Shown: positions 50,507 to 61,350 of the stretch, in pieces | Numbering within the stretch: position 1 is the first letter of the stretch | Layout: each line of letters starts with the position of its first letter | Source: Verrucomicrobiota bacterium | GTDB taxonomy: Bacteria; Verrucomicrobiota; Verrucomicrobiia; Methylacidiphilales; JBCCWR01 | DNA length: 64,000 nucleotides | Direction: 5' to 3' | NCBI GenBank assembly: GCA_039192515.1 | Contig: JBCCXA010000010.1 | Location: forward strand, 11,126 to 75,125 | Notes under the pieces: generated by a model | Told to the model about the DNA's origin: nothing | Seen by the model: only the letters and a program-made list of their open reading frames with translations | Databases searched by the model: none | Translations under genes and position numbers: made by a program

Positions 50507-51058
50507 TCAGGCGCTCATTTCAGCATGAGAAAGCTCAAGCTCCTTGCTAATAGTAAATTTGATAATAGTCCCCTGGCCTACCTTGCTCTGAGCAACCCAT
50601 ACTCTACCTTGGTGCTGTTTTACCAGCGTCTCAACAATCGCCAAACCCGCACCAGAACCTTTTATTTTGTTATTATTATGAGCCTTTTTGAATAGAGCAA
50701 AGACCTTTTGCTGCATCTCAGGCTCTATACCTATACCATTATCTATCACAGAAAAGAGATAATATTTTAAATCATCTTCATATTTAATAAGAATTTGAGG
50801 CCTATCTTTATCACAATACTTAATAGCATTCGCTATGAGGTTTTGAAACAAGATGAGAATAGAAGTCTCATGACATGTGATATGAGGTATTTCCTGCACC
50901 TCAATCACGGCACCAGAGTCTTTGATTTGCTTTTCTAATAGTGTTTTAGCTTCGGCAATAAGTCCTGAAAGATCGCAATTGGAAAAGACAATATCCCTAC
51001 GAGCTCTTCGAGATAGGGTGAGAAGATATATACGCACCGAAAGATTTCCAGGACGCAT
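50507..51058 (-). pseudogene. C-terminal fragment of a sensor histidine kinase (end of HisKA helix 2 + HATPase_c; no phospho-acceptor His)
   Basis: N-box FQNLIANAIKYC, G1 VIDNGIGI and G2 GSGAGLAIV. The frame is closed by TAG immediately upstream of the first Met, and no H-box is present. Confidence 0.75.
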
Positions 51059-51066
51059 CTACTTTT

Positions 51067-51630
51067 TTGCGAACTTTAACTACCTCCGAGCAAAAGAAAA
51101 AAATAGAACAGGAGGTGGATGAACTAATCCAAGAATCATCCAAGCCAGCGGAAGCCGCCAATACTAAAAGAACTGATCTCAAGAGAGATATCTATCTAGC
51201 TGAAGACTTAGCGATGCGAGAGATTGAACAAGAATTTGAAGTTAAAACGAATAGACAGGTTGCGTTCGGCTCCATGGATGCAGGTATCGACGGCATGTTT
51301 GCCAAGAACGGAAAAGGTTATGGAATCGAAGTGAAATTTGTCTGTAATACCCTCTCCAGAAATGTTATCAATCAGGCTGCAGGAATAGGAAATCAGCTAT
51401 TTGAAAGGTATGGATGGAAGAACTTTGATATGATTATCGCAGTTGTCCTCGACAATCAGAATCCAGTAGAGGTCCAAAAGCAGAGGAACCAAATACAGGA
51501 ACTAGTTAATGAAAAAGGTGATGGCTATCATTGTCGAGTTTACGAGTATGGCGAGCTTCTCAAAAAATGCGGCATCGATAAAAATGGATATAGATCTTTC
51601 AAAGTCTATAGAAGAATTAGAAGGAGATGA
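51067..51630 (+). CDS. Hypothetical protein with PD-(D/E)xK (Mrr-like) nuclease-type motif; possible orphan toxin domain
   Basis: REIEQEFE..SMDAGIDGMF-x9-YGIEVKF fits E..D..(E)xK. The start is uncertain (TTG 51067, GTG 51115 or ATG 51213). The 3' end overlaps the next ORF by 47 nt. Confidence 0.45.
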   Translation: MRTLTTSEQKKKIEQEVDELIQESSKPAEAANTKRTDLKRDIYLAEDLAMREIEQEFEVKTNRQVAFGSMDAGIDGMFAKNGKGYGIEVKFVCNTLSRNVINQAAGIGNQLFERYGWKNFDMIIAVVLDNQNPVEVQKQRNQIQELVNEKGDGYHCRVYEYGELLKKCGIDKNGYRSFKVYRRIRRR

Positions 51631-52096
51631 TTGGGGTCCACCTGATTTTGATTCTCATGTTGTTAGCACGTGCCATGAGTTACGTAAAAAGCCAATCAAA
51701 GATTTTGAGATAGAAGAACTGCGATTCATGATATTACAGAACGTAGGATCTGAATATTTAGCTCCATTAGCTTGCGTAGACCACGACCCTATAGACCAGT
51801 GGGCACCCGTGCATGATTATTTAGTCTACTATAGCTTATGCCTACACATCGGACCAGAGAACGAAGAAGGAGCAGATTTGTTTTATGTAGATATTGCGAC
51901 TCCACAGGCCATAAAACACTTTCAGTTGGGCAAAACCGTTTCGGATAAAAGCATTATTTTGAATCCCTATTCATGGCCGGAGGTATTAACCAGAGTAAAG
52001 AGAATGATTAATCATGTTTCGGGCGTGTCCTGGCAGCAAGTGGCAGAGGAATTAGACAAAAGTTTTAGTTGGGAATTTAGTGGTTATCCGTCATAA
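51584..52096 (+). CDS. Chimeric immunity protein: CdiI-like N-terminal half fused to an Imm8-like domain
   Basis: IEELEGDDWGPPDFDSHVVSTCHELRKKPIKDFEIEELRFMILQNVGSEYLAPLA matches my recollection of the CDI-immunity family. LHIGPENEEGADLFYVDIATP..WQQVAEELDKSFSWEFSGY matches the Imm8 pattern. ATG 51584 is chosen over 51509. Confidence 0.6.
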   Translation: MDIDLSKSIEELEGDDWGPPDFDSHVVSTCHELRKKPIKDFEIEELRFMILQNVGSEYLAPLACVDHDPIDQWAPVHDYLVYYSLCLHIGPENEEGADLFYVDIATPQAIKHFQLGKTVSDKSIILNPYSWPEVLTRVKRMINHVSGVSWQQVAEELDKSFSWEFSGYPS

Positions 52097-52101
52097 AGAT
52101 A

Positions 52102-52168
52102 CAGAACAAGCCAGTTGAGCTAATCTGCAAAACGCGTTGCGTTTTTTGATTAGCTTTTAGATCGCCTC
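52102..52168 (+). repeat. attC-like site 1 (degenerate R')
   Basis: R'' CAGAAC is at 52103-52108. Arms are GAGCTAATC / GATTAGCT with an inner hairpin AAAACGC-gtt-GCGTTTT. ATC (52162-52164) sits where GTT is expected, and the site may double as a terminator. Confidence 0.55.
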
Positions 52169-52219
52169 CTACCCTATAATATTTAAAACACCGTGAGCAG
52201 TTAGCTCACTTCTAACGAT

Positions 52220-52555
52220 ATGAATACAGAAGAGGAAGATCAGTCAGCACATGTAGCCGGCTTCATCACGTTTTCCGGATCAATTCCAGAATTGAGAGCG
52301 ATGATCCGTGATGCTGGTCTCACACCTTCGAAGGCAGATTCGCACCATATTCACATTGAAGAGTTTTCTCACGTCATGCTGAGAGAGTACTCGAAGTTTG
52401 AGTATATGATCGAAGCAGATGCAGATACACCAGATGAGATGGTTGAAGATATGAAGAGATTCTCTTCAGCGCTATCTGCTGAAAGAATTGGATACAACTA
52501 TGAAATCTATGATTCTTCAAATGAGCTAGTTTGCCAGAAGGAGGAGAAGTTTTGA
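52220..52555 (+). CDS. Cassette ORF, hypothetical acidic protein
   Basis: 111-aa ORF bounded by attC-like sites 1 and 2. No family was recognised. Confidence 0.55.
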   Translation: MNTEEEDQSAHVAGFITFSGSIPELRAMIRDAGLTPSKADSHHIHIEEFSHVMLREYSKFEYMIEADADTPDEMVEDMKRFSSALSAERIGYNYEIYDSSNELVCQKEEKF

Positions 52556-52556
52556 A

Positions 52557-52631
52557 TCATATCAAGGCAGAGCTCACAATGGCTACTCATCGCTTCGCTC
52601 TTCGCAGCCACGTGAGTCTTTGACGTTAACC
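52557..52631 (+). repeat. attC site 2
   Basis: The R''-like box is CATATCAAGGCAG (ATC for AAC). Arms are CTCAC..TGGCT / AGCCA..GTGAG. R' GTTAACC is at 52625-52631. Confidence 0.65.
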
Positions 52632-52649
52632 ATACGAGAAAGTACGCGC

Positions 52650-53408
52650 ATGGACGAAATTGAAAAAATTATAAGTCGATATAATGAAGAATATGTAGGC
52701 AAGAGCCTAGAATCGTTAGATGATATAAATAGGTTCACTGGTACTTTCGTAAAGGATGTAGCAGAGATTTATGATTGCATCACGAGAATGCGAAACATCG
52801 ATCGCAACCCAACTGGATTCAATCTAGACGATGCTCCTATTTTGGGGCTGTTAACCAGAATATGGAAACTACTCAAAGAAATCGTTATCTACTACGAAAA
52901 AGATAACGCTGAAATCATAAGTATATTAGAAAGACCACTGATAGAAGCGGCAGTTACGGCTGAATATTTACTAATGAGCGATTCTGCTGTTATTAAAGAC
53001 TATAGAAAATGCTCATATAAAGATCGATTAAGAATACTCCGAGAATTAAAAGAAGGTTCTAGGTTTTTCGAAACAAAGGCCGGAAAACGGTTGCTCAAAT
53101 CAGTTCAAGAGAAAATGGATTTAGAAGGTTTCTCTGAAGACGACTTCAAGAAACAAAAGAAAAATCGATGGAAGCTTCAAGGAAAAACTTTCTTCGACAT
53201 ATTCGGAGAGGTTACAGACGAAGACCTTTACAAGTACACTTATGGCATGATGTCTGAGTCTATTCATGGATCTTGGAACGAATCTATGGATTGGTGCCTC
53301 CAAAAAAACGAAGATTCAACATTCACAGTTTATCCGTTCTATCATGGAGCTGATGTTAGATATATATGCCCAACACTAAAGTTTTGCAATGAGTCATACA
53401 GACTTTGA
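52650..53408 (+). pseudogene. Cassette gene (possibly DUF5677-like) truncated by an in-frame TGA
   Basis: ATG 52650 lies 25 nt after R' GTT. After TGA (53406-53408) the same frame stays open for 38 more codons (LKRIDCEDENMVNVLNWIERVNTRIFMIFDQKYDGPNG) and ends at TAA 53523-53525 inside the R'' box of attC 3. Confidence 0.6.
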
Positions 53409-53519
53409 CTAAAACGAATTGATTGCGAGGATGAGAACATGGTCAATGTCCTCAATTGGATTGAAAGAGTTAATACGAGAATATTTATGATTTTTGACCA
53501 AAAATACGATGGGCCAAAT

Positions 53520-53597
53520 GGCTAACAAAGCCAGCCAGAGGGACCAAAAAACCGCCGCGTCGCTCTGGTTTTTCGGCCCCTGCTGGCAGCGTTCGGG
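53520..53597 (+). repeat. attC site 3
   Basis: R'' GCTAAC is at 53521-53526. Arms are GCCAGCcAGaGGGaCCaAAAAACC / GGTTTTTcGGCCCCTGCTGGC. R' GTTCGGG is at 53591-53597. Confidence 0.8.
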
Positions 53598-53605
53598 GAT
53601 AAAAT

Positions 53606-54028
53606 ATGAAAGCTGATCAGCGCATATTTGGTGAAATCTATGATGAAAGCAAATCTCATCGTATAACATTAGTATATGATGAAACATCACGTGGCGGGTA
53701 TGATTTCCTTAGGATAGACTGGCATACCCTAAGAGACAATGAATGGCGTATTCATCATACATTATCGCAGGATGCCTTCTCAAAGAATTCCAATGAACAA
53801 ATATGGGTTAGTGACATTCATAGTTTTGATCCTGAGACCGCTAACTGTATTCTGAAAATTGCAGAGGGAGAAAAACAATTAGATGTAGGACATATTTCGT
53901 ATATCTATTCTTGGAGAATTTGGGATATTAAAGATAACAAAGAAGTAAAGCTAATTAAGGTGTGCGAGAACATATGGGAGGGACCCATACTATTAGAAAA
54001 AGTAGAGCACACCGAACATGCCAGTTGA
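53606..54028 (+). CDS. Cassette ORF, hypothetical protein
   Basis: 140 aa with ATG 15 nt after R' GTT and the stop inside the next attC. No family was recognised. Confidence 0.6.
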   Translation: MKADQRIFGEIYDESKSHRITLVYDETSRGGYDFLRIDWHTLRDNEWRIHHTLSQDAFSKNSNEQIWVSDIHSFDPETANCILKIAEGEKQLDVGHISYIYSWRIWDIKDNKEVKLIKVCENIWEGPILLEKVEHTEHAS

Positions 54029-54135
54029 CAAAATGGCTCATACTCCGCGCTGTGATTTATCAGTATGAAAGATGAACTTCAACCCGTGAGATTTATCTGA
54101 TATTATCAGAGCCATTTCTCACTTTTACGTTCGGT
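54012..54135 (+). repeat. attC site 4 (long, ~124 bp)
   Basis: R'' CCGAAC is at 54012-54017. Arms are GTtGAcAAAATGGCTC (54024-54039) / GAGCCATTTCTCAC (54109-54122). R' GTTCGGT is at 54129-54135. Confidence 0.8.
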
Positions 54136-54151
54136 AGAAGAATAGAAAATT

Positions 54152-54892
54152 ATGAAAATTAAACTCGCAGCAGTCGGCATGTTTTTTTTGTCGTTATCGT
54201 GTTTTGCTCAAAGTGAGGCTATCAAGACAGAGGACGCGGACGCGAAAATTATTGCGGAAGTGCTCGGACAGAAGATCACCGCTGCCGAAAAGGACAATCT
54301 CCAGGGGTTGATCTTTGGAGCTCTATTACAGGAGTTTGCGAAGGAAAATAAGATCGAGCCCACAGAGGCGGAACTGGACGCCTTCATCGTGCAGACCCAG
54401 AAGCAAGAGAAGCGAAATCAAGTAGAATTCGAAGCAGATCGGGAAAGACTGCGGCGAGAGCTGAGGTCTACCGACCTCTCGGATGAAGAGCGGGAGGATA
54501 AGGAATCTCAACTCCAGACGGTTGAGAGCATTCTGAAGGCCAATCGCGAGACAAAAAGAATGACGAAAGGGATGGAAGCAGAGATGCACTCCATGATGTG
54601 CCAAATGGCGCAACAGTTTGTCAACTCGTGGAAGATCAACAAGGCCCTATACGAAGAATACGGAGGTCGAATCATCTTTCAGCAGGCTGGAGTTGAGCCA
54701 CTGGATGCATATCGGGATTTTCTGAGGAAGAAGGAGGAGCAGGGAGCATTTCAGATCCTCGATGAGAGCCACAGGGCACAGTTCTGGAATTACTTTACGA
54801 ATGACAACATGCATACTTTCTACGACAAAAACGACGGAGCGAAATTTATACATACCCCTTGGTGGATGGTGGACAAATCACCAGAAGAATAA
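54152..54892 (+). CDS. Cassette ORF, secreted coiled-coil-rich protein
   Basis: Signal peptide MKIKLAAVGMFFLSLSCFAQSEA. Codon usage is visibly more G+C-rich than in neighbouring cassettes. Confidence 0.6.
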   Translation: MKIKLAAVGMFFLSLSCFAQSEAIKTEDADAKIIAEVLGQKITAAEKDNLQGLIFGALLQEFAKENKIEPTEAELDAFIVQTQKQEKRNQVEFEADRERLRRELRSTDLSDEEREDKESQLQTVESILKANRETKRMTKGMEAEMHSMMCQMAQQFVNSWKINKALYEEYGGRIIFQQAGVEPLDAYRDFLRKKEEQGAFQILDESHRAQFWNYFTNDNMHTFYDKNDGAKFIHTPWWMVDKSPEE

Positions 54893-54896
54893 AATC

Positions 54897-54952
54897 ACCG
54901 AACAAGACAGTGGTGGCAACGGCTAAGGCCGTGCCACACTTCGAAGTTCGCT
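54897..54952 (+). repeat. attC site 5 (short family)
   Basis: R'' CCGAAC ends at 54903. Arms are GTGgTGGCAaCGGC (54910-54923) / GCCGTGCCACAC (54928-54939) with two bulged bases. R' GTTCGCT is at 54946-54952. Confidence 0.85.
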
Positions 54953-54958
54953 AATAAA

Positions 54959-55330
54959 ATGGCCCTGATCTTTAAATTGGAATGCGATAAGTGTGATTTC
55001 ACCGTAGGTCCTACTGGTGGAGGACACCTTTACGTTACTCTAGATGATGGAAGCCGTAAGCCTTTACCTCATCCGGCTGAATTTTCGACAGCATTAGATG
55101 CAACTGGTAAAGAGTTACCAGAGTTACAGAAGGAAAAGCGAATTGGCAGTGAACTCCAGTATCTTTGTTTAGCATGTGGCCATGATTTATATCTCGATCC
55201 GAGCAAAGATGTTTTAGTTTGTCCTGTTTGTACGTCTGATAACCTCATCGACATGCAGAAAGTTAAAAAGAAAGCCTGCCCAAAATGTAAGGAAGGCCAT
55301 CTAAGGCAAGAACACATAGGTATTTCATGA
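54959..55330 (+). CDS. Cassette ORF, double zinc-ribbon protein
   Basis: 123 aa with four CxxC pairs: CDKC, CLAC, CPVC and CPKC. Confidence 0.6.
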   Translation: MALIFKLECDKCDFTVGPTGGGHLYVTLDDGSRKPLPHPAEFSTALDATGKELPELQKEKRIGSELQYLCLACGHDLYLDPSKDVLVCPVCTSDNLIDMQKVKKKACPKCKEGHLRQEHIGIS

Positions 55331-55340
55331 ATGTAATAAA

Positions 55341-55406
55341 AGCGAACAATCCGATACATCGAATTCACTCCCTGCGGTCGTTCTTGGCTGATCGGTGACG
55401 TTAGTC
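55341..55406 (+). repeat. attC site 6
   Basis: R'' GCGAAC is at 55342-55347 and R' GTTAGTC at 55400-55406. The 27-nt core AATTCACTCCCTGCGGTCGTTCTTGGC (55362-55388) is identical to that of site 10. Confidence 0.8.
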
Positions 55407-55413
55407 AGAATAA

Positions 55414-55938
55414 ATGAAATCAATCATACCATCCAAGGAAGAGTGTTTCTACATCCTCGAAATGTTGGAGTCCTCACTGATTGATTTCAGCTACACTCAT
55501 CCTTGGGCTGACCGAATAATCGGATTGATTGACATACCCCCATCTTGGCTCTGCGACGTCTCTACAAAAAAATACACTGGAGACCAAAAGAAAGCATTTA
55601 GGGAATATGTCTTCAGTGAGCCATTTGAAGAAACACCAGTTGATATTGATAAATTCCACGTCGGGTGTCTTTGGATTAGATACGAAAGAAGAGAATTGTC
55701 TTGGGCTTCCTTCCTTCAACTGTCAGGCGAGTATCTCGACGCTGCGGGGGGAGACTGGGATTGCGAAACCCCATACCACTACCTCAATACTATTGAAGAT
55801 GCCTATTTCAGCTACGAATCCGAGGAGCGCACAAAGGCATTATATCTTAAAGATCATGATGTGTTGCCATGGGCGAATCTAGCAAAACAGAAACTCGAAC
55901 CTTTTTTAGAAACACGAATGACTAACAAGGCAGGATAG
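55414..55938 (+). CDS. Cassette ORF, hypothetical protein
   Basis: 174 aa with ATG 14 nt after GTT and the stop inside attC 7. No family was recognised. Confidence 0.6.
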   Translation: MKSIIPSKEECFYILEMLESSLIDFSYTHPWADRIIGLIDIPPSWLCDVSTKKYTGDQKKAFREYVFSEPFEETPVDIDKFHVGCLWIRYERRELSWASFLQLSGEYLDAAGGDWDCETPYHYLNTIEDAYFSYESEERTKALYLKDHDVLPWANLAKQKLEPFLETRMTNKAG

Positions 55939-55974
55939 GCAACGCCTTTGGCGCGCCTACCTTTGACGTTCGGG
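55920..55974 (+). repeat. attC site 7 (short family)
   Basis: R'' ACTAAC is at 55921-55926. Arms are GGaTAGGCaaCGC / GCGCGCCTACC. R' GTTCGGG is at 55968-55974. Confidence 0.8.
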
Positions 55975-55992
55975 CAATAGAATATTTCAAGA

Positions 55993-56361
55993 ATGAATCC
56001 TGATTTAAATTTCTTTTTTATGCTATTGATTAGTTCGGTATTCATTTTCTTCAGTTACAGAATTATCAAAAGGCACATGCTCAATATTGAGCTAGATAAA
56101 CATCTAAATGATAAAAATTATGTAGTTCATGAGATTACTTCTTATGTGTGTCTGAGAGACGAAGATGTCCCAAAAAGTTTATTAGATTTTTACTATTCTC
56201 AGTATCCCAGAATTATGAGATGGCACAGCCAGTGGCACATGATATACAGAGTAACGATATTAGATAGTAATTCGTCACCAGAATATAGGTGGTATTATCT
56301 TGATTCTAGAGCTTCAAAGCATAATCGTATTAAAGAATTAAAACCCGAACCTGGCAGTTGA
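55993..56361 (+). CDS. Cassette ORF, N-terminally membrane-anchored hypothetical protein
   Basis: 122 aa with the TM helix FFFMLLISSVFIFFSY. The stop lies inside attC 8. Confidence 0.55.
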   Translation: MNPDLNFFFMLLISSVFIFFSYRIIKRHMLNIELDKHLNDKNYVVHEITSYVCLRDEDVPKSLLDFYYSQYPRIMRWHSQWHMIYRVTILDSNSSPEYRWYYLDSRASKHNRIKELKPEPGS

Positions 56362-56411
56362 CCTAATCGCGTACCCTAGCGGGTTCGCTCCAGGTCACTT
56401 TTACGTTCGCT
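56344..56411 (+). repeat. attC site 8 (TACCCTAGCGGGTT-core family)
   Basis: R'' CCGAAC is at 56345-56350. Arms are GTtGACCT / AGGTCAC around the core TACCCTAGCGGGTTCGC. R' GTTCGCT is at 56405-56411. Confidence 0.8.
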
Positions 56412-56419
56412 GAATAAAT

Positions 56420-56797
56420 ATGAGTTTGATCTTAGATTGGCTGACCCTGAGCTCGAAAGTGATCGATTCGCTTGAGGAAGCGTTAAGAAGCTACGAACCT
56501 GATCAAGTCGAACTCAACGCTATCGCTTGGCAGATCGCGGAACTAAAGAAGGTAAATGAAAAAGTTAAAAAAGATGGATTCTTCGACTCAAGTTACACCG
56601 AAGCTTACCTGATCAAAGCTACATCTCGGGAACATCTGAATATTCAAACCGCGATATTAGAAGAATTAGGCTACCTATTCGATATAGCTCAAAGAGCTGT
56701 TCGATTAGGCCCCTCGAAGGCAAATGACATTCTTAAGATTAAACAGAGCGAACAAGGCGGTGAGCTCAATTCCGAGAGGCTGCGCTCCTCGTCTTGA
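56420..56797 (+). CDS. Cassette ORF, hypothetical helical protein
   Basis: 125 aa. The C-terminal 16 residues (EQGGELNSERLRSSS) are encoded by attC 9. Confidence 0.55.
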   Translation: MSLILDWLTLSSKVIDSLEEALRSYEPDQVELNAIAWQIAELKKVNEKVKKDGFFDSSYTEAYLIKATSREHLNIQTAILEELGYLFDIAQRAVRLGPSKANDILKIKQSEQGGELNSERLRSSS

Positions 56798-56815
56798 GCT
56801 ACCTTAGCGTTCGCT
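56747..56815 (+). repeat. attC site 9
   Basis: R'' GCGAAC is at 56748-56753. Arms are GGTgAGCTCAA / CTTGAGCTACC. R' GTTCGCT is at 56809-56815. Confidence 0.8.
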
Positions 56816-56818
56816 GAA

Positions 56819-57088
56819 ATGAAAAAACCTCCCACAGAGATAGATGGAGCTAAGGTTATTGAGTGGGCCTGGTCTGGAGATACCCCATTTGGCCTAGTGC
56901 CAGGAGCTGAACCCCCTGAGATATATGGATTGGCGATAGCTACCTACGACAACCAATCATACTACCGTTTTTCGTGCGATAGCGATTGGCATACTACTCA
57001 AGACAGTGTGTATGACTCTATTGAAAAAGCTAAGTCCTTGTTACCTAAGCAGTATTGCGATGTTGAAGCATTCTGGAGAAAATCATAA
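56819..57088 (+). CDS. Cassette ORF, small hypothetical protein
   Basis: 89 aa with ATG 10 nt after GTT. No family was recognised. Confidence 0.55.
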   Translation: MKKPPTEIDGAKVIEWAWSGDTPFGLVPGAEPPEIYGLAIATYDNQSYYRFSCDSDWHTTQDSVYDSIEKAKSLLPKQYCDVEAFWRKS

Positions 57089-57094
57089 AATATT

Positions 57095-57160
57095 AGCGAA
57101 CAAACACGTAGTGCCAATTCACTCCCTGCGGTCGTTCTTGGCACACGCTTAACGTTCGAC
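57095..57160 (+). repeat. attC site 10
   Basis: R'' GCGAAC is at 57096-57101. Arms are CGTaGTGCCAA / TTGGCACACG. The core (57116-57142) is identical to that of site 6. R' GTTCGAC is at 57154-57160. Confidence 0.85.
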
Positions 57161-57168
57161 AGAAATTT

Positions 57169-57687
57169 ATGAAAAAGAAACTAACTCTACTCGCACTTGC
57201 TCTCATACCTACTGCTTGCCTACTCGGAAAGACCATATCCCTCGATGGAGGGAGTGTAGCATTCGATGCACCGGATGAATTCACTCCAGTGCCTCAAGAG
57301 ATAATTGACATAAAGTATCCCTCTTCGAGAGCCCCGAAGTATGTGATTGGGAATAAGTCTGCAGCTACGACGATTGCCTATGATATTAAACCGCACTCAA
57401 TTCCTCAGCACAAAATTGAGGAAGCTAGAAAGTCATTCAGAGATTTGTTTCCTCGCATAATTCCAGGACTTCAGTGGAAAGAGAATAAAGTAATCACACT
57501 AGCAGGACAAAAGTGGGGATACATGGAAATGACATCGACTGCTATCGATACGAATATTTACAATATCATGCTCTTTACAGGATACAAAGGTAAGATGTTG
57601 GTCTTCAATTTCAACTCAATAAGAGAGGAGTTCCCGAAATACGAAAAAGCCCTCAGGGATTCTCTAAATTCGATTGAAATCAAATAG
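57169..57687 (+). CDS. Cassette ORF, secreted DcrB/DUF1795-like protein
   Basis: Signal peptide MKKKLTLLALALIPTACLLG. The family assignment is tentative, based on overall pattern only. Confidence 0.5.
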   Translation: MKKKLTLLALALIPTACLLGKTISLDGGSVAFDAPDEFTPVPQEIIDIKYPSSRAPKYVIGNKSAATTIAYDIKPHSIPQHKIEEARKSFRDLFPRIIPGLQWKENKVITLAGQKWGYMEMTSTAIDTNIYNIMLFTGYKGKMLVFNFNSIREEFPKYEKALRDSLNSIEIK

Positions 57688-57727
57688 TCGAACAAGACGT
57701 GTGAGGCAACGAGCGCAAGCGTTCGTC
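57688..57727 (+). repeat. attC site 11, internally deleted (3' arm missing)
   Basis: TCGAAC-AAGACGTGTGAGGCAACGAGC-GCAAGC-GTTCGTC keeps R'', the L''-like arm and R' (57721-57727), but no complementary 3' arm. It is only ~40 bp long. Confidence 0.5.
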
Positions 57728-57737
57728 GAAATATTAA

Positions 57738-58024
57738 ATGGCATTACAAGTTTATATTTCAGATCCTAAAGGTGGACTTGAGAAACATCAGATCTTACCT
57801 GAGCTATCTCATGAACAACATCAAGAGTTATTTTCAAACTCAAAGATGAGTATTCAGACATATCTTATTCCCACCAGGAGCTAGAAGCTCTTGTTTCAGA
57901 GATAGAACATGCAACTATGAATTTCGATATGACATCACCCGTAAAAGCGTTTTTGAGCCCTTTTCATTCATTATCTGTTATTGCTCTGACTAGGGAGAAG
58001 AATATAGTATTAATCTCAGATTAA
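57738..58024 (+). pseudogene. Cassette gene disrupted by a frameshift
   Basis: The frame from ATG 57738 gives 48 aa and ends at TAG 57882-57884. A second frame is open from 57815 to TAA 58022-58024 (..HQELEALVSEIEHATMNFDMTSPVKAFLSPFHSLSVIALTREKNIVLISD) and stops right before attC 12. One indel in the 57815-57884 overlap would join them. Confidence 0.6.
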
Positions 58025-58030
58025 ATTAGA

Positions 58031-58100
58031 GACGAACATGACAGTTTACCAAATACGTTTACCCTAGCGGGTTTCGCTTTTGGTGACTTCGACATTCTGC
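58031..58100 (+). repeat. attC site 12 (TACCCTAGCGGGTT-core family, mutated R')
   Basis: R'' ACGAAC is at 58032-58037. Arms are GTtTACCAAAtACG / CGCTTTTGGTGAC. ATT (58094-58096) replaces GTT. Confidence 0.65.
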
Positions 58101-58186
58101 AAAAAAGTCATCGACCATGAAAAATCTCGAATATTTAAACACAGAGAGTAAACAAACCTTGCGAGAAGGAATATCCGAGTTGCGGC

Positions 58187-58654
58187 ATGCCGAAGGCGCC
58201 GGAACTTCTGAATGACATGGATGCCCACGATGCAATCCATGTGCTTTTCGGCTGCCCAACGAACTTGGCAGGTGAGATCGTTGCACATATTTGGACTGCT
58301 TTCGGAACGACCGTATCAATAAAGGATATGCGCCGGGTCAACCAACACCGCGATCACAGGCAAGTATTGGAACAGATTGGGCATCGAAAATTATTTCTTA
58401 CATGGATTCGCAGTCTGCCGCGAATCCTCAAGGTGATCATCCGCACAAAGAAGATGAAGTCGCGTTGGCCTGTGGAAGAGGTTGATGCATTCGCTGACCG
58501 ACCTCTCGACGAATTGCGAAAGGAATTCTCGATCAGGCTCATTCCTTTCGATCCAGGGGAAGGCGGATCAGGAGGTGCAGCACTCCGAAACTTGAATCGT
58601 AAGACAGAACAAGGCAGTGGACTCAACGCGCTGCCGCGCGTGAGTCACTTTTAA
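58187..58654 (+). CDS. Cassette ORF, Coq4-like HDxxH protein (possibly frameshifted at the 5' end)
   Basis: DAHDAIHVLFGCPTNLAGEIVAHIW resembles the Coq4-family HDxxH-x(10-13)-E metal motif. A 32-codon frame from ATG 58117 overlaps out of frame. The C-terminal 16 residues are encoded by attC 13. Confidence 0.55.
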   Translation: MPKAPELLNDMDAHDAIHVLFGCPTNLAGEIVAHIWTAFGTTVSIKDMRRVNQHRDHRQVLEQIGHRKLFLTWIRSLPRILKVIIRTKKMKSRWPVEEVDAFADRPLDELRKEFSIRLIPFDPGEGGSGGAALRNLNRKTEQGSGLNALPRVSHF

Positions 58655-58662
58655 AGTTCGCC
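58604..58662 (+). repeat. attC site 13 (short family)
   Basis: R'' CAGAAC ends at 58610. Arms are GTGgACTCAaCGCG (58617-58630) / CGCGTGAGTCAC (58637-58648). R' GTTCGCC is at 58656-58662. Confidence 0.85.
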
Positions 58663-58667
58663 ACAAA

Positions 58668-59141
58668 ATGAACCATTTTCTACTACCTGTCCTTATCGTC
58701 ATATCGGTCTTCACTGGAGTTTGTTGTGCCGAAGGCTTAGCCCCAACAAATCTCACTGTGATAGTTTGTGATTCTACCAACAAGGTTTTGGATACTGTTA
58801 TTGTTCCGGACGACAAGAAGTCCAGATCAGTGAAATTTACTCTACCTGAGGGAACAGACGAGATTCGAGTTTTCGCACTCGGAAAGCGTCAGCACAAAGA
58901 CATGCAGACAGGCTACTATATCACCGGCCGACCTGATGATAAGAAGTGGATGGGGTTGGGCTACGTCGAGGCGCATGTCGAGAAAGGCGTTTTGACCGGA
59001 ATCGATGGTAACGGATTCGGACAGATCAAAATTGACAAGAATCTCAAGAAGCAAGTCTTGACCGACATCAAAGTTGGGACGACGGCCACGATCACAACCG
59101 TAATAATCAATGGCGAACAAGGCAGTGGTGGCAACGGCTAA
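58668..59141 (+). CDS. Cassette ORF, secreted hypothetical protein
   Basis: Signal peptide MNHFLLPVLIVISVFTGVCCAEG. The C-terminal EQGSGGNG is encoded by attC 14. Confidence 0.6.
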   Translation: MNHFLLPVLIVISVFTGVCCAEGLAPTNLTVIVCDSTNKVLDTVIVPDDKKSRSVKFTLPEGTDEIRVFALGKRQHKDMQTGYYITGRPDDKKWMGLGYVEAHVEKGVLTGIDGNGFGQIKIDKNLKKQVLTDIKVGTTATITTVIINGEQGSGGNG

Positions 59142-59167
59142 CGCCGCGCCACACTTTGACCTTAAAT
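59112..59167 (+). repeat. attC site 14 (short family, mutated R')
   Basis: R'' GCGAAC is at 59113-59118. The 5' arm GTGGTGGCAACGGC is identical to that of site 5. CTT (59161-59163) replaces GTT. Confidence 0.7.
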
Positions 59168-59597
59168 GTCCACTCAGGAATAGACTATAAGCCAAGATAA
59201 AGTAATAAAAATACTTGCAATAGCAAATATAATCTCTCTGCCTGTTGTTGTAGTTCTGAGTTTCTATCTTGATTCTTCTTTGCCGCCATTACTTGTAGAC
59301 TTCTTGGAGCAAGAAATGGAACGAGAAAATACCAATGTAGAATTGGTAGTTAGTTTTCTTACAATTCCGGTTTTATTAGTTCATCTTGTAGCACTATTCG
59401 GAGTTCTGCTATTCAAACAGTGAGCACGTATTCCTCTACTATTTACAAGCATACTATTTTATGTGCTTACTCCTTTTTTAGGGCCCTACGTGGATCACGG
59501 TATTTCGGCGACATTAGATAGTTTATCTTCGTTTATGCTGGGGGCGCTGTTAGTGCTATTGTTTTTCGGAGAATCAACATTTAACAAGTTAAGCTAG
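59166..59597 (+). pseudogene. Cassette gene for a ~4-TM membrane protein with two in-frame stop codons
   Basis: Hand translation gives one frame: MSTQE-TAG(59181)-TISQDKVIKILAIANIISLPVVVVLSFYL..LVALFGVLLFKQ-TGA(59421)-ARIPLLFTSILFYVLTPFLG..LGALLVLLFFGESTFNKLS-TAG(59595). It is absent from the ORF track because each piece is shorter than 60 aa from a start codon. Confidence 0.65.
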
Positions 59598-59637
59598 CAG
59601 GACGCCGCAAGCGGCGCCTCTGCTTAAAGCGTTATCT
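59579..59637 (+). repeat. attC site 15 (short family)
   Basis: R'' TTTAAC is at 59580-59585. Arms are TTAAGCtAGcAGGaCGCCGC (59589-59608) / GCGGCGCCTCTGCTTAA (59611-59627), which pair perfectly once the 3 bulged bases are removed. R' GTTATCT is at 59631-59637. Confidence 0.85.
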
Positions 59638-59642
59638 GATAA

Positions 59643-60098
59643 ATGTCATATATCCTGACAAAACAAAGAAATGCCAACGTCAAAGCTGCATTTGAAAAAT
59701 ATGCTTTGTATTTAAAAGAAAATGAAAGGTCATTCCCCAAGGGTGCATATGAACTTGCTACTAGTGATTGGTGGTTTAATTTTAATAATCACAGATGTCC
59801 ACATGACTCTTGGTTAGAGAAATTTGAGATTATGGAACACAGCCAAGGCGAGAGGAATGAGATAAGGTGGTCAAACATCGTTATTACTCTACTAGGCGCT
59901 TATCATGACTCTCTGCTTACCATTGAATATTCAGCAGTTTGCAATTATAGACTAGAGTGTGATTCAGGACATGGAGATTGGCTTTTTGACCAGTTTCTGT
60001 GTTCGGATGATGGCGATGTCATACATGAAATTGAGTGGTCTAGATCTCACTGGATAATTCACTGCAAAGATATTGAGTTTAGCTATAAGAAAATTTAA
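59643..60098 (+). CDS. Cassette ORF, hypothetical cytoplasmic protein (immunity-protein-like architecture)
   Basis: 151 aa with ATG 12 nt after GTT. The family is not securely recognised. Confidence 0.55.
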   Translation: MSYILTKQRNANVKAAFEKYALYLKENERSFPKGAYELATSDWWFNFNNHRCPHDSWLEKFEIMEHSQGERNEIRWSNIVITLLGAYHDSLLTIEYSAVCNYRLECDSGHGDWLFDQFLCSDDGDVIHEIEWSRSHWIIHCKDIEFSYKKI

Positions 60099-60167
60099 GA
60101 TAATAAGTCAGTTCACCAAATGCGCTTACCCTGGCGGGTTTCGCTTTTGGTGACTTCAAGCTTAGAG
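60098..60167 (+). repeat. attC site 16 (TACCCTGGCGGGTT-core family, both R boxes mutated)
   Basis: GATAAT (60099-60104) replaces xxGAAC. Arms are GTtCACCAAAtGCG / CGCTTTTGGTGAC. CTT (60161-60163) replaces GTT. Confidence 0.6.
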
Positions 60168-60179
60168 TAATATAAAAAC

Positions 60180-60596
60180 ATGAGTTATTTCATGACAGCG
60201 ATTGGTGAAAAACCAATTATTGAAGGAATTGAAACTAAATCAATTGACGATTCTCAGGATTATCTTAAAAACTTAAAGCCTTATTTTTCTGAAACGTATC
60301 AGGATGAAAGAGTATGGGTCTTAGAGTACTTCGATAAAGATTATAATGATTTTATTTCACTCTCTGAAAGCACATTTCATGAAACACAAGACTTTGAAGC
60401 AACACTTTTATATAAAACCGTAAAGTCTCTGGAACAGAATCAAAACTCTTTCCACATTTGGTGGGCTAGCAACAACTCTCACACCGATGTAGAAGAAGTC
60501 AGTACTTTTGAAGAAGCAATTGAACTAATCAAAGAGCAAATTAACAGAGCTGAAGAAATCGGTATAAGGGCAACTCTAACAAACGGATCAACCTAA
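60180..60596 (+). CDS. Cassette ORF, hypothetical acidic protein
   Basis: 138 aa and very AT-rich. The stop lies inside attC 17. Confidence 0.55.
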   Translation: MSYFMTAIGEKPIIEGIETKSIDDSQDYLKNLKPYFSETYQDERVWVLEYFDKDYNDFISLSESTFHETQDFEATLLYKTVKSLEQNQNSFHIWWASNNSHTDVEEVSTFEEAIELIKEQINRAEEIGIRATLTNGST

Positions 60597-60649
60597 TAGC
60601 ATCCATTCGCTACGCTCATTCCAGCTATAGGTTATCTAGGACGTTAGGT
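60573..60649 (+). repeat. attC site 17
   Basis: R'' CTCTAAC is at 60574-60580. Arms are GATcAACCTAaTAGC / GCTATAGGTTATC. R' GTTAGGT at 60643-60649 matches the canonical GTTRRRY. Confidence 0.85.
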
Positions 60650-60942: not shown

Positions 60943-61019
60943 GACCTAACAATTAGATCAACCTAATAGCTTCCACTCGCTGCGCTCGCTCCAGCTATAG
61001 GTTATCTAGGACGTTCTGT
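60943..61019 (+). repeat. attC site 18 (last in array; near-duplicate of site 17)
   Basis: R'' ACCTAAC is at 60944-60950. CAACCTAATAGC..CCAGCTATAGGTTATCTAGGAC is shared with site 17. R' GTTCTGT is at 61013-61019. Confidence 0.85.
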
Positions 61020-61119
61020 GAAAAAAGAATTACCAGATAGAGTTATTAGTCACCTTAACAGAGGCGATCCCGCCAAAGAAAAATCATCCCTTTCTTCTCA
61101 GATACTACTCATATGAAAA

Positions 61120-61350
61120 TTAACGGGACAGCAATGCTTCGCAAGTAACAGTAAATCCACGAACTCCCGTTTCCATATCTATGATAATCTTTAAGATGTA
61201 ATTAGCATCCGAAATAACTTTGTGGGTGTGAGCAACCCATTTAGCAGAATCATTCAGCCTATTAATGACCAGGTAGCTTGTAGCTGCTACGGCTAATAGG
61301 ATGGCCATCATGGCAGTATAACCGGTGACTATTTGGTGCTGTAATTTCAC
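61120..61350 (-). pseudogene. N-terminal fragment of a CHASE3-domain sensor protein
   Basis: KLQHQIVTGYTAMMAILLAVAATSYLVINRLNDSAKWVAHTHKVISDANYILKIIIDMETGVRGFTVT matches the start of CHASE3 (TM helix, W-V-x-H-T, ETGxRG[YF]). It then diverges (CEALLSR) and stops after 76 codons. Confidence 0.7.

Follow-up and report, generated by a model that had tools for sequence, protein, structure and literature searches.

Clusters of attC sites with no integrase gene nearby (CALINs) are the closest described counterparts of the locus analyzed here, an integron cassette array at 51.0–61.1 kb on the forward strand of a 64-kb stretch of DNA (hereafter, the window) from contig JBCCXA010000010.1 of a Verrucomicrobiota metagenome-assembled genome (MAG). 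In the CALIN survey of Cury et al. (2016, PMC4889954), 83% of the clusters had fewer than 6 attC sites and 6.6% had more than 10. Their proposed origins include loss of intI or rearrangement, the action of an integrase in trans has been raised as a possibility for CALINs generally, and Verrucomicrobia are among the phyla with integrons (PMC4889954). The fused cassettes of class 1 integrons indicate that attC arms are also lost in integrons that have integrases (PMC4670013). Furthermore, the tolerance of the crossover triplet to mutation is known from the integrase IntI1 and engineered triplet mutants of attCaadA7 and attI1 (Frumerie et al., 2009, PMC2811028). A change of the first triplet base in one partner only reduces recombination 10^3- to 10^4-fold, and giving both partners the same change rescues it; at triplet positions 2 and 3, a change in a single site is tolerated (PMC2811028). 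Changing T to A at the second position on both arms even raises the frequency, and a mismatch in the center of the R box costs approximately 370-fold (PMC2811028).

The array at 51.0–61.1 kb is a CALIN. It has 18 co-oriented attC sites with start-to-start spacings of 348–963 nt (CALINs are defined by two or more attC sites at spacings below 4 kb), no intI nearby and, as in CALINs, cassettes mostly of unknown function. Unlike most CALINs, however, it is large (18 sites), it is cut inside cassettes at both ends, and part of it is demonstrably damaged. We consider it likely that the array is a fragment of an integron's cassette array from which the integrase gene and attI have been lost, that its distal part is dead, and that the unusual triplets of its first two sites are a natural variant and not decay.

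The attC sites identify this region as a genuine integron cassette array, with compact, co-oriented open reading frames (ORFs) between the sites. Overall, the sites are 55–125 nt long and share the hairpin organization of attC sites on the bottom strand, in which the R box is followed by an unpaired spacer, by an L stem whose R''/L'' arm has a single unpaired base and by a variable loop. The register of the L stem is conserved as 3 bp, one unpaired base and then at least 2 bp. Both R boxes are present in all 18 sites, and 13 of the 18 carry AAC and GTT. Most of the sites fold as DNA better than their shuffled versions (z of -2.2 to -4.3), the exceptions being site 11, which has no such fold, site 6, with a weak upper stem, and sites 2, 17 and 18, whose folds do not surpass those of shuffles (z = -0.77, -0.90 and -0.34, respectively). 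In 14 of the 18 cassettes, an ORF fills 84–100% of the part that is not attC; the other four are disrupted. All of the attC covariance models were built within this analysis. A model trained on the 18 sites recovered exactly those 18 in the 64 kb, both strands included, and its next best match had 12 bits (E = 1.8). We also collected relatives by matching a 19-base pattern from the R''-L'' region of sites 5, 13 and 14 to a metagenome collection, which returned more than 120 contigs; the 80 loci among the matches listed contain 126 attC sites by model search, 106 of them distinct. A model built from these relatives only (model R2) found 16 of the array's sites at E < 1; one more had E = 3.2, and site 15 was missed. 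Rfam gave no match anywhere in the array and has no family for these attC sites. A tblastx comparison of the array with the 80 listed loci gave attC matches only, with no homologous cassettes.

Both ends of the array are cut inside cassettes, by events other than site-specific recombination. Cassette 0 (51025–52217) is truncated at its 5' end and begins with neither an R' nor an attI. Its ORF stays open up to ~51022 and aligns only from residue 79 of the 270-aa homologue P0122; thus, some 78 N-terminal codons are missing together with the start of the cassette. No attC-like or GTT-bearing site was found at the head junction (~51025). The sequence on the other side of this junction is the 3' part of a histidine-kinase gene on the reverse strand (50507–51025), which encodes the end of HisKA and a HATPase_c domain (Pfam, 1.9e-23) and is cut at its 5' end. 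This fragment (P0001) is annotated as a 183-aa 'ATP-binding protein' in a Verrucomicrobiota MAG, and the annotation of a second protein of the locus, P0121, names the same source. At the distal end, a further cassette survives as a 5' stub of at most 130 nt (61014–61143, forward strand) with a short frame starting at GTG 61018. The stub is cut at the 5' part of a histidine-kinase gene (61144–61350, reverse strand), which encodes a membrane segment and the start of a CHASE3 domain (Pfam, 6.3e-8, profile positions 2–35 only) and is truncated at its 3' end. The two kinase fragments share a strand, and their order is the one expected of a single gene that has lost its middle. The nearest genomes (Verrucomicrobiota, including an Opitutales MAG; 67–69% identity in a dehydrogenase of the flank) show no synteny with the locus on the side of the kinase.

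No integrase, and no remnant of one, was detected in the 51 kb upstream of the array or in the 3 kb downstream. Searches of the whole 64-kb window in six frames, by tblastn and with a profile of three integron integrases, had no hit at E < 1. The probes were IntI1 and two integron integrases encoded on contigs that carry the same attC family; the IntI1 sequence served as a lead only, and its hits on the metagenome contigs L049 and L061 were confirmed with NCBIfam TIGR02249. The larger ORFs of the window, scanned with Pfam and NCBIfam, likewise include no integrase, and the called genes in a further 2.9 kb downstream (contig L041) include no integrase-like Pfam family. In metagenome contigs the same attC family does have integrases. 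Four of the related contigs carry integrase homologues that are divergent from the attC sites and lie just upstream of them. Those on L049 and L061 are full-length (374 and 358 bits, respectively, with TIGR02249, cutoff 265), and the match on L057 runs off the end of the contig. The integrases found on contigs with this attC family are 41–45% identical to the IntI1 probe. Thus, the family belongs to working integrons elsewhere. The L049, L061 and L057 loci share with the array the sequence family and structure of their attC sites, the G|TT boundaries and a GAT/ATC minority variant, but they have an integrase gene at the head where, in the array, a truncated cassette is joined directly to a piece of kinase gene. 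The head of a complete integron (intI, attI and the cassette promoter) is absent from the array, and the position that intI occupies in the relatives is gone. An integrase homologue on L098 (1053–1713) matches IntI1 at residues 19–149 and 239–330 only, a probable internal deletion; the four attC sites downstream of it are all canonical.

Integron recombination crosses over between the G and the TT of the triplet, so that, in the array, the final six bases of every R' are part of the following cassette. Apparent mutations of the triplets therefore need to be judged in the circular form of the cassette, which we rebuilt by joining each cassette's own G to the first six bases of the same cassette. 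When R'' was compared with the first six nucleotides of its own cassette, 99 of 102 positions paired; against the neighbor's bases, as in the array form, 65 of 102 did. Random pairings of R'' gave 61.5 +/- 4.1, and none of 20000 reached 99. Furthermore, the covariation score of the circular form was 0.68, compared to 0.144 in shuffles (none of 500 as high), and pair counting gave 94.3% paired cells with 29 compensatory cells. Pairing and covariation in the array form could not be distinguished from shuffles. Complementarity between cassette start and R'' is kept across every junction, including those at sites 7, 10 and 14. Away from the outermost R-box positions, the circular form has mismatches only at the cleavage-adjacent pair, and only in sites 12, 14 and 16.

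Read in this way, the first two sites lose their appearance of damage. The preliminary description took an ATC at 52162 for a mutated crossover triplet, but these three bases (52161–52163) fall in the variable region of site 1, which is longer than had been assumed (52101–52223; 123 nt; 26.8 bits and E = 6e-5 with model R2) and has its crossover G at 52217. Its R'' is ACAGAAC and its R' is GATATGA. The L' of the site (52201–52210) pairs with L'' (52113–52123) and leaves T52116 unpaired, in the usual register of the family. The other listed anomaly, ATC in place of AAC in the R'' of site 2 (52557–52631; R'' TCATATC, R' GTTAACC), does have this sequence at 52561–52563; what fails is its reading as decay. 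The R' of site 1 (52217–52223) complements the R'' of site 2 at 7 of 7 positions. This match means that cassette 1 (52218–52625) carries a variant compensated on both arms, and, by sequence, the two supposed defects are two halves of this single GAT/ATC variant. The same variant occurs naturally in the metagenome relatives (GAT in 5 of 104 R' boxes and ATC in 4 of 106 R'' boxes, about 5%). In L088, L051 and L061, a GAT and the ATC of the following site likewise come from a single cassette and are perfectly matched, and L061, one of these carriers, encodes the full-length integron integrase. The counts of pair 6-13 in the circular form (AU 14, UA 1) reflect the substitution. Frumerie et al. (2009, PMC2811028) tested this class of second-base change, and their results predict tolerance of a compensated GAT. 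In the array form, the variant leaves the R box of site 1 and that of site 2 mismatched in the center. Hence cassette 1 may be poorly excisable owing to this mismatch, but it is not a decay product. Site 1 also contains a second, proximal copy resembling the 3' arm (52148–52167; GATTAGCTTTTAGATCGCC). The GATTAGCTTTTAGATCGCC copy is an even better partner for L'' than the true L' and governs the predicted fold; it may have arisen by duplication within the site or be what is left of a lost cassette.

The damage in the distal part of the array is of a different kind. The preliminary description had reported ATT at 58094 and CTT at 59161 and 60161 in place of the GTT of the relatives, and these three readings stand. 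Site 12 (58031–58100) has R'' GACGAAC and R' ATTCTGC, with the crossover base A at 58094 and a C.A mismatch in the R box. Site 14 (59112–59167) has R' CTTAAAT and the crossover base C at 59161. Site 16 (60098–60167) has R' CTTAGAG with C at 60161 and, as also reported before, AAT at the end of its R'' (60102–60104). The first six bases of this R'', AGATAAT, pair perfectly with the start of the site's own cassette, and the last (60104) is T for C, leaving a T.C combination at the cleavage-site pair. The six bases that follow each of the three variant bases complement the R'' of the next cassette (5/6, 6/6 and 6/6, respectively), which fixes the register independently; thus, the register is right and the first base alone has changed. 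These changes depart from a strict conservation: the first base of R' is G in all 104 complete distinct related sites and in 15 of 18 sites here (Fisher p = 0.0028), and the last base of R'' is C in all 106 distinct related sites from the listed metagenome loci. For example, site 14 is identical at 47 of 48 positions to sites on L078 and L088, the crossover base being the single difference. Sites 12, 14 and 16 are also mismatched inside their own R box, where the engineered mutants of Frumerie et al. were changed on both arms and kept a paired hairpin. Those mutants do include the classes of first-base change (ATT and CTT) found here, for which they predict loss of recombination with GTT partners (PMC2811028). 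The substitutions cluster. All four lie on the C7.G1 pair at the cleavage point (4 of 36 positions versus none of the other 72, among 108 conserved positions; p ~0.012), and the L boxes are intact in 17 of the 18 sites.

Site 11 (57687–57727) is damaged more extensively. As first described, it keeps R'', the 5' arm and R' and has no 3' arm; the site is 41 nt long and also retains a spacer, and the bottom strand folds at -4.0 kcal/mol (z = +0.63), no better than shuffles. Comparison with relatives puts the deletion at ~15–18 nt of the 3' arm and spacer, the shortest complete relative being 56 nt. The site also has the lowest score with the self-trained model (21.6 bits). The defect resembles the fused cassettes of class 1 integrons (PMC4670013), in which partial or total loss of an attC site welds two cassettes together. 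Those cassettes, however, belong to mobile integrons that have an integrase and often form translational fusions, whereas here the next cassette is a pseudogene. Overall, 5 of the 18 sites carry changes predicted from the IntI1 data to block recombination with canonical partners, and the changes at five array sites are absent from all 104 relatives. We read about a third of the array as probably damaged in such a way that its cassettes could no longer be excised, a known kind of remnant. Covariance-model scoring, proposed earlier as a way to detect decay, is not informative in this respect. Scores with model R2 track the subfamily and not the damage: site 14, with its CTT, ranks second at 49.7 bits, and the intact sites 3, 15 and 17, which are of other subfamilies, are lowest or missed.

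The other sites are canonical in their triplets. They comprise site 3 (53520–53597), with AAC/GTT; site 4 (54011–54135; 125 nt); site 5 (54897–54952), which has the top score with the independent model (55.2 bits); site 6 (55341–55406); site 7 (55920–55974); site 8 (56344–56411); site 9 (56747–56815), with an R box paired at 7 of 7 positions; site 10 (57095–57160); site 13 (58604–58662); site 15 (59579–59637); site 17 (60574–60649; R'' CTCTAAC, R' GTTAGGT); and site 18, the last of the array (60944–61019; R'' ACCTAAC, R' GTTCTGT). All of them, like sites 1, 2, 11, 12, 14 and 16, are on the forward strand. Site 6 may be a further case of wear that the preliminary description did not include. 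Its triplets and L box are canonical, the L box being compensated relative to that of its relative, site 10, and its upper stem has two mismatches relative to the same site. Its fold is accordingly weak (-4.4 kcal/mol, z = +1.2, versus -12.6 kcal/mol for site 10).

Four of the 18 cassettes are pseudogenised; the claim that such cassettes are present was confirmed against homologues for two of them, and the other two were recognized from the reading frames. All four genes are on the forward strand. The DUF5677 gene (52650–53525) of the cassette at 52626–53591 has a premature TGA (53406–53408) that changes W253 to a stop. The read-through product is fully covered by more than 100 homologues of 291 aa, the same length as the product, with 88–93% identity, and the homologue compared has W at this position. 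The hosts of these homologues include Marinobacter, Marinomonas, Halomonas, Vibrio, Shewanella, relatives of Pseudomonas, Methylotenera and another Verrucomicrobia MAG. In one metagenome contig (L164, 10001–10876), the DUF5677 gene is found with a different attC and has an ISL3 transposase and a resolvase upstream. The second confirmed case is the frameshifted gene of the cassette at 58095–58656, in which an N-terminal frame (58117–58215) meets the frame 58187–58654 near 58200. Approximately nine codons are deleted there and the frame shifts; the repaired product aligns from residue 1. Most of the 215 members of this family (E <= 0.001) have 30–40 more N-terminal residues than the long ORF. 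The cassette at 57722–58094 appears to have a frameshift zone at 57815–57884, where two overlapping frames together give ~95 aa, and its longest ORF covers 47% of the cassette. Similarly, the cassette at 59162–59631 probably carries a disrupted membrane-protein gene (59187–59423), with ATA at the expected start (59187), an in-frame TGA at 59421–59423 and a longest ORF that covers 34% of the cassette. Of the four, three adjoin defective sites, all within 57.2–60.6 kb. Cassette 0, at the head, holds two overlapping ORFs (51028–51630 and 51509–52096, together spanning 51028–52096). The second is of immunity type (Imm8/CdiI_3, Pfam), and the first, which has no family match, contains on our reading of the sequence a D...E-V-K motif resembling that of PD-(D/E)xK nucleases. 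The two look like a toxin-immunity pair.

These findings are consistent with the following history. Each unit of the array entered it through the action of an integron integrase at the G|TT crossover. Breaks inside cassettes set the present bounds of the array, which now abuts two pieces of histidine-kinase gene. The distal third (57.2–60.6 kb) would be a dead zone, with the armless site 11 and three substitutions of the crossover G, one of them with the paired C of R'' also changed. By analogy with IntI1, sites 12, 14 and 16 would not exchange strands with a canonical GTT partner. The IntI1 experiments, together with the armless site 11, suggest that the seven cassettes between 57155 and 60643 could no longer be excised singly. 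Sites 14 and 16, which both have CTT, might still recombine with each other. As 13 of the 18 sites keep every recognizable attC feature, most of the remaining ~10 cassettes would presumably be mobilizable by an integrase supplied in trans.

Several points weigh against this history. About half of the CALINs lie in replicons that encode an integrase (PMC4889954), and one may be encoded elsewhere in this genome. The effects of the variant bases are extrapolated from IntI1 acting on attCaadA7, and the cognate integrase of this array differs from IntI1. Two of the four pseudogenes (57722–58094 and 59162–59631) were called from their reading frames. A search with the joined kinase fragments recovered the fragment itself and, beyond it, only distant kinases that lack CHASE3; with no orthologue found, the two pieces may come from different genes. 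Lastly, the joins across sites 7, 10 and 14 come from the MAG assembly, and the two assemblies available derive from the same reads.

The preliminary description explained the array by relaxed selection after loss of the integrase, and this explanation survives in part. In its full form, the integrase has been lost from the genome, all of the defects are neutral decay and the whole array is frozen. We regard this as possible, if on balance not probable. The array is decapitated and the window has no integrase; the dead sites and the four pseudogenes also fit such decay, as does the absence of the crossover-base variants from 104 relatives. Neutral decay should, however, be evenly spread, yet the four substitutions are all on the C7.G1 pair. 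It also does not account for a site 14 that is otherwise a near-perfect copy of widespread relatives, nor for the intact L boxes of nearly all sites. Furthermore, two of the six triplet anomalies listed earlier proved to be a matched variant, and most of the sites are intact.

The clustering raises a second explanation, in which the damage arose while an integrase was active, locally or in trans. A dead site protects the cassettes next to it from excision and loss; under an active integrase, dead sites and the junk adjoining them would therefore accumulate, and the array would record integrase activity through survivorship of excision-proof mutations and adjoining pseudogenes. The substitutions are indeed confined to the only triplet position at which a single-site change abolishes recombination (PMC2811028), three of the four pseudogenes are beside defective sites, and the arm loss of site 11 has parallels in class 1 integrons that have integrases (PMC4670013). 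The clustering at the cleavage pair suits a filter for excision-proof cassettes no less than it suits neutral decay, but four substitutions give only weak statistics and the pattern is a hint. Nor is the association of pseudogenes with dead sites significant (3 of 7 versus 1 of 10). G1 is part of a CpG at most sites, which could raise the rate of G to A, though the two G to C changes are left unexplained by it. On this evidence, we think it rather unlikely that survivorship produced the damage. The broader proposition, that survivorship under an active integrase enriches locking mutations and that headless arrays are partly the residue of what the integrase could not remove, is doubtful at present.

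A third possibility is that there never was a local integrase and that illegitimate or secondary-site recombination placed several cassettes, as a circle or a linear fragment, in a histidine-kinase gene. The kinase fragments on both flanks, matching in order and strand, suggest such an event, and cassette insertion outside att sites is documented (10.1101/2022.09.11.507474). Furthermore, the TTCTGT that follows the last attC (61013–61019) is the exact complement of the R'' bases ACAGAA of the first (52101–52107), and the other 17 tails match less well. The stub after site 18 and cassette 0 may thus be one former cassette of a circularly permuted array, or the match may be a coincidence with a chance of about 1 in 18. 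We considered the stub as the missing 5' end of cassette 0 and rejected it; it has no similarity in any frame to the N-terminus of P0122, the only homologue of the cassette 0 gene. This mismatch also speaks against such an insertion. In addition, both junctions are inside cassettes and not at G|TT, the missing middle of the kinase requires at least one further deletion, and no orthologue was found that would show the two pieces to be a single gene. We therefore view this origin as improbable.

Finally, it is very improbable that metagenome assembly, in crossing the repeated attC sites, created the variant bases or a false cassette order: although the source is a MAG and contigs of an independent assembly (Logan) break inside sites 7, 10 and 14, every defect lies inside such a contig at 100% identity, and complementarity between cassette start and R'' holds at all junctions, those three included. 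The sequence that could be read was the 64-kb window and four Logan contigs from the same sample, which tile the array at 100% identity and confirm its bases. These contigs end inside sites 7 (55928–55957), 10 (57128–57143) and 14 (59131–59142). The 30-nt overlap of contigs at site 7 suggests a branch of the assembly graph, that is, the same attC core elsewhere in the sample. Exact-protein look-ups of the array returned sample SRR22824305 alone.

The array is an already known kind of element, a CALIN sensu Cury et al. (2016), larger than most, decapitated, about one-third degenerate and otherwise an ordinary locus. It holds a lesson for the annotation of cassette arrays, as the GAT/ATC variant, which looks like mutation in the array, proves to be a matched and mobile polymorphism when read circularly. 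It also provides natural crossover-base mutants with intact twins in metagenomes; for example, site 14 and its counterpart on L078 and L088 form a pair of substrates that differ by one base. Lastly, the origin of CALINs is debated between integrase loss, rearrangement and insertion at secondary sites, and this array, because both of its ends are cut inside cassettes, is a clear case of decapitation.

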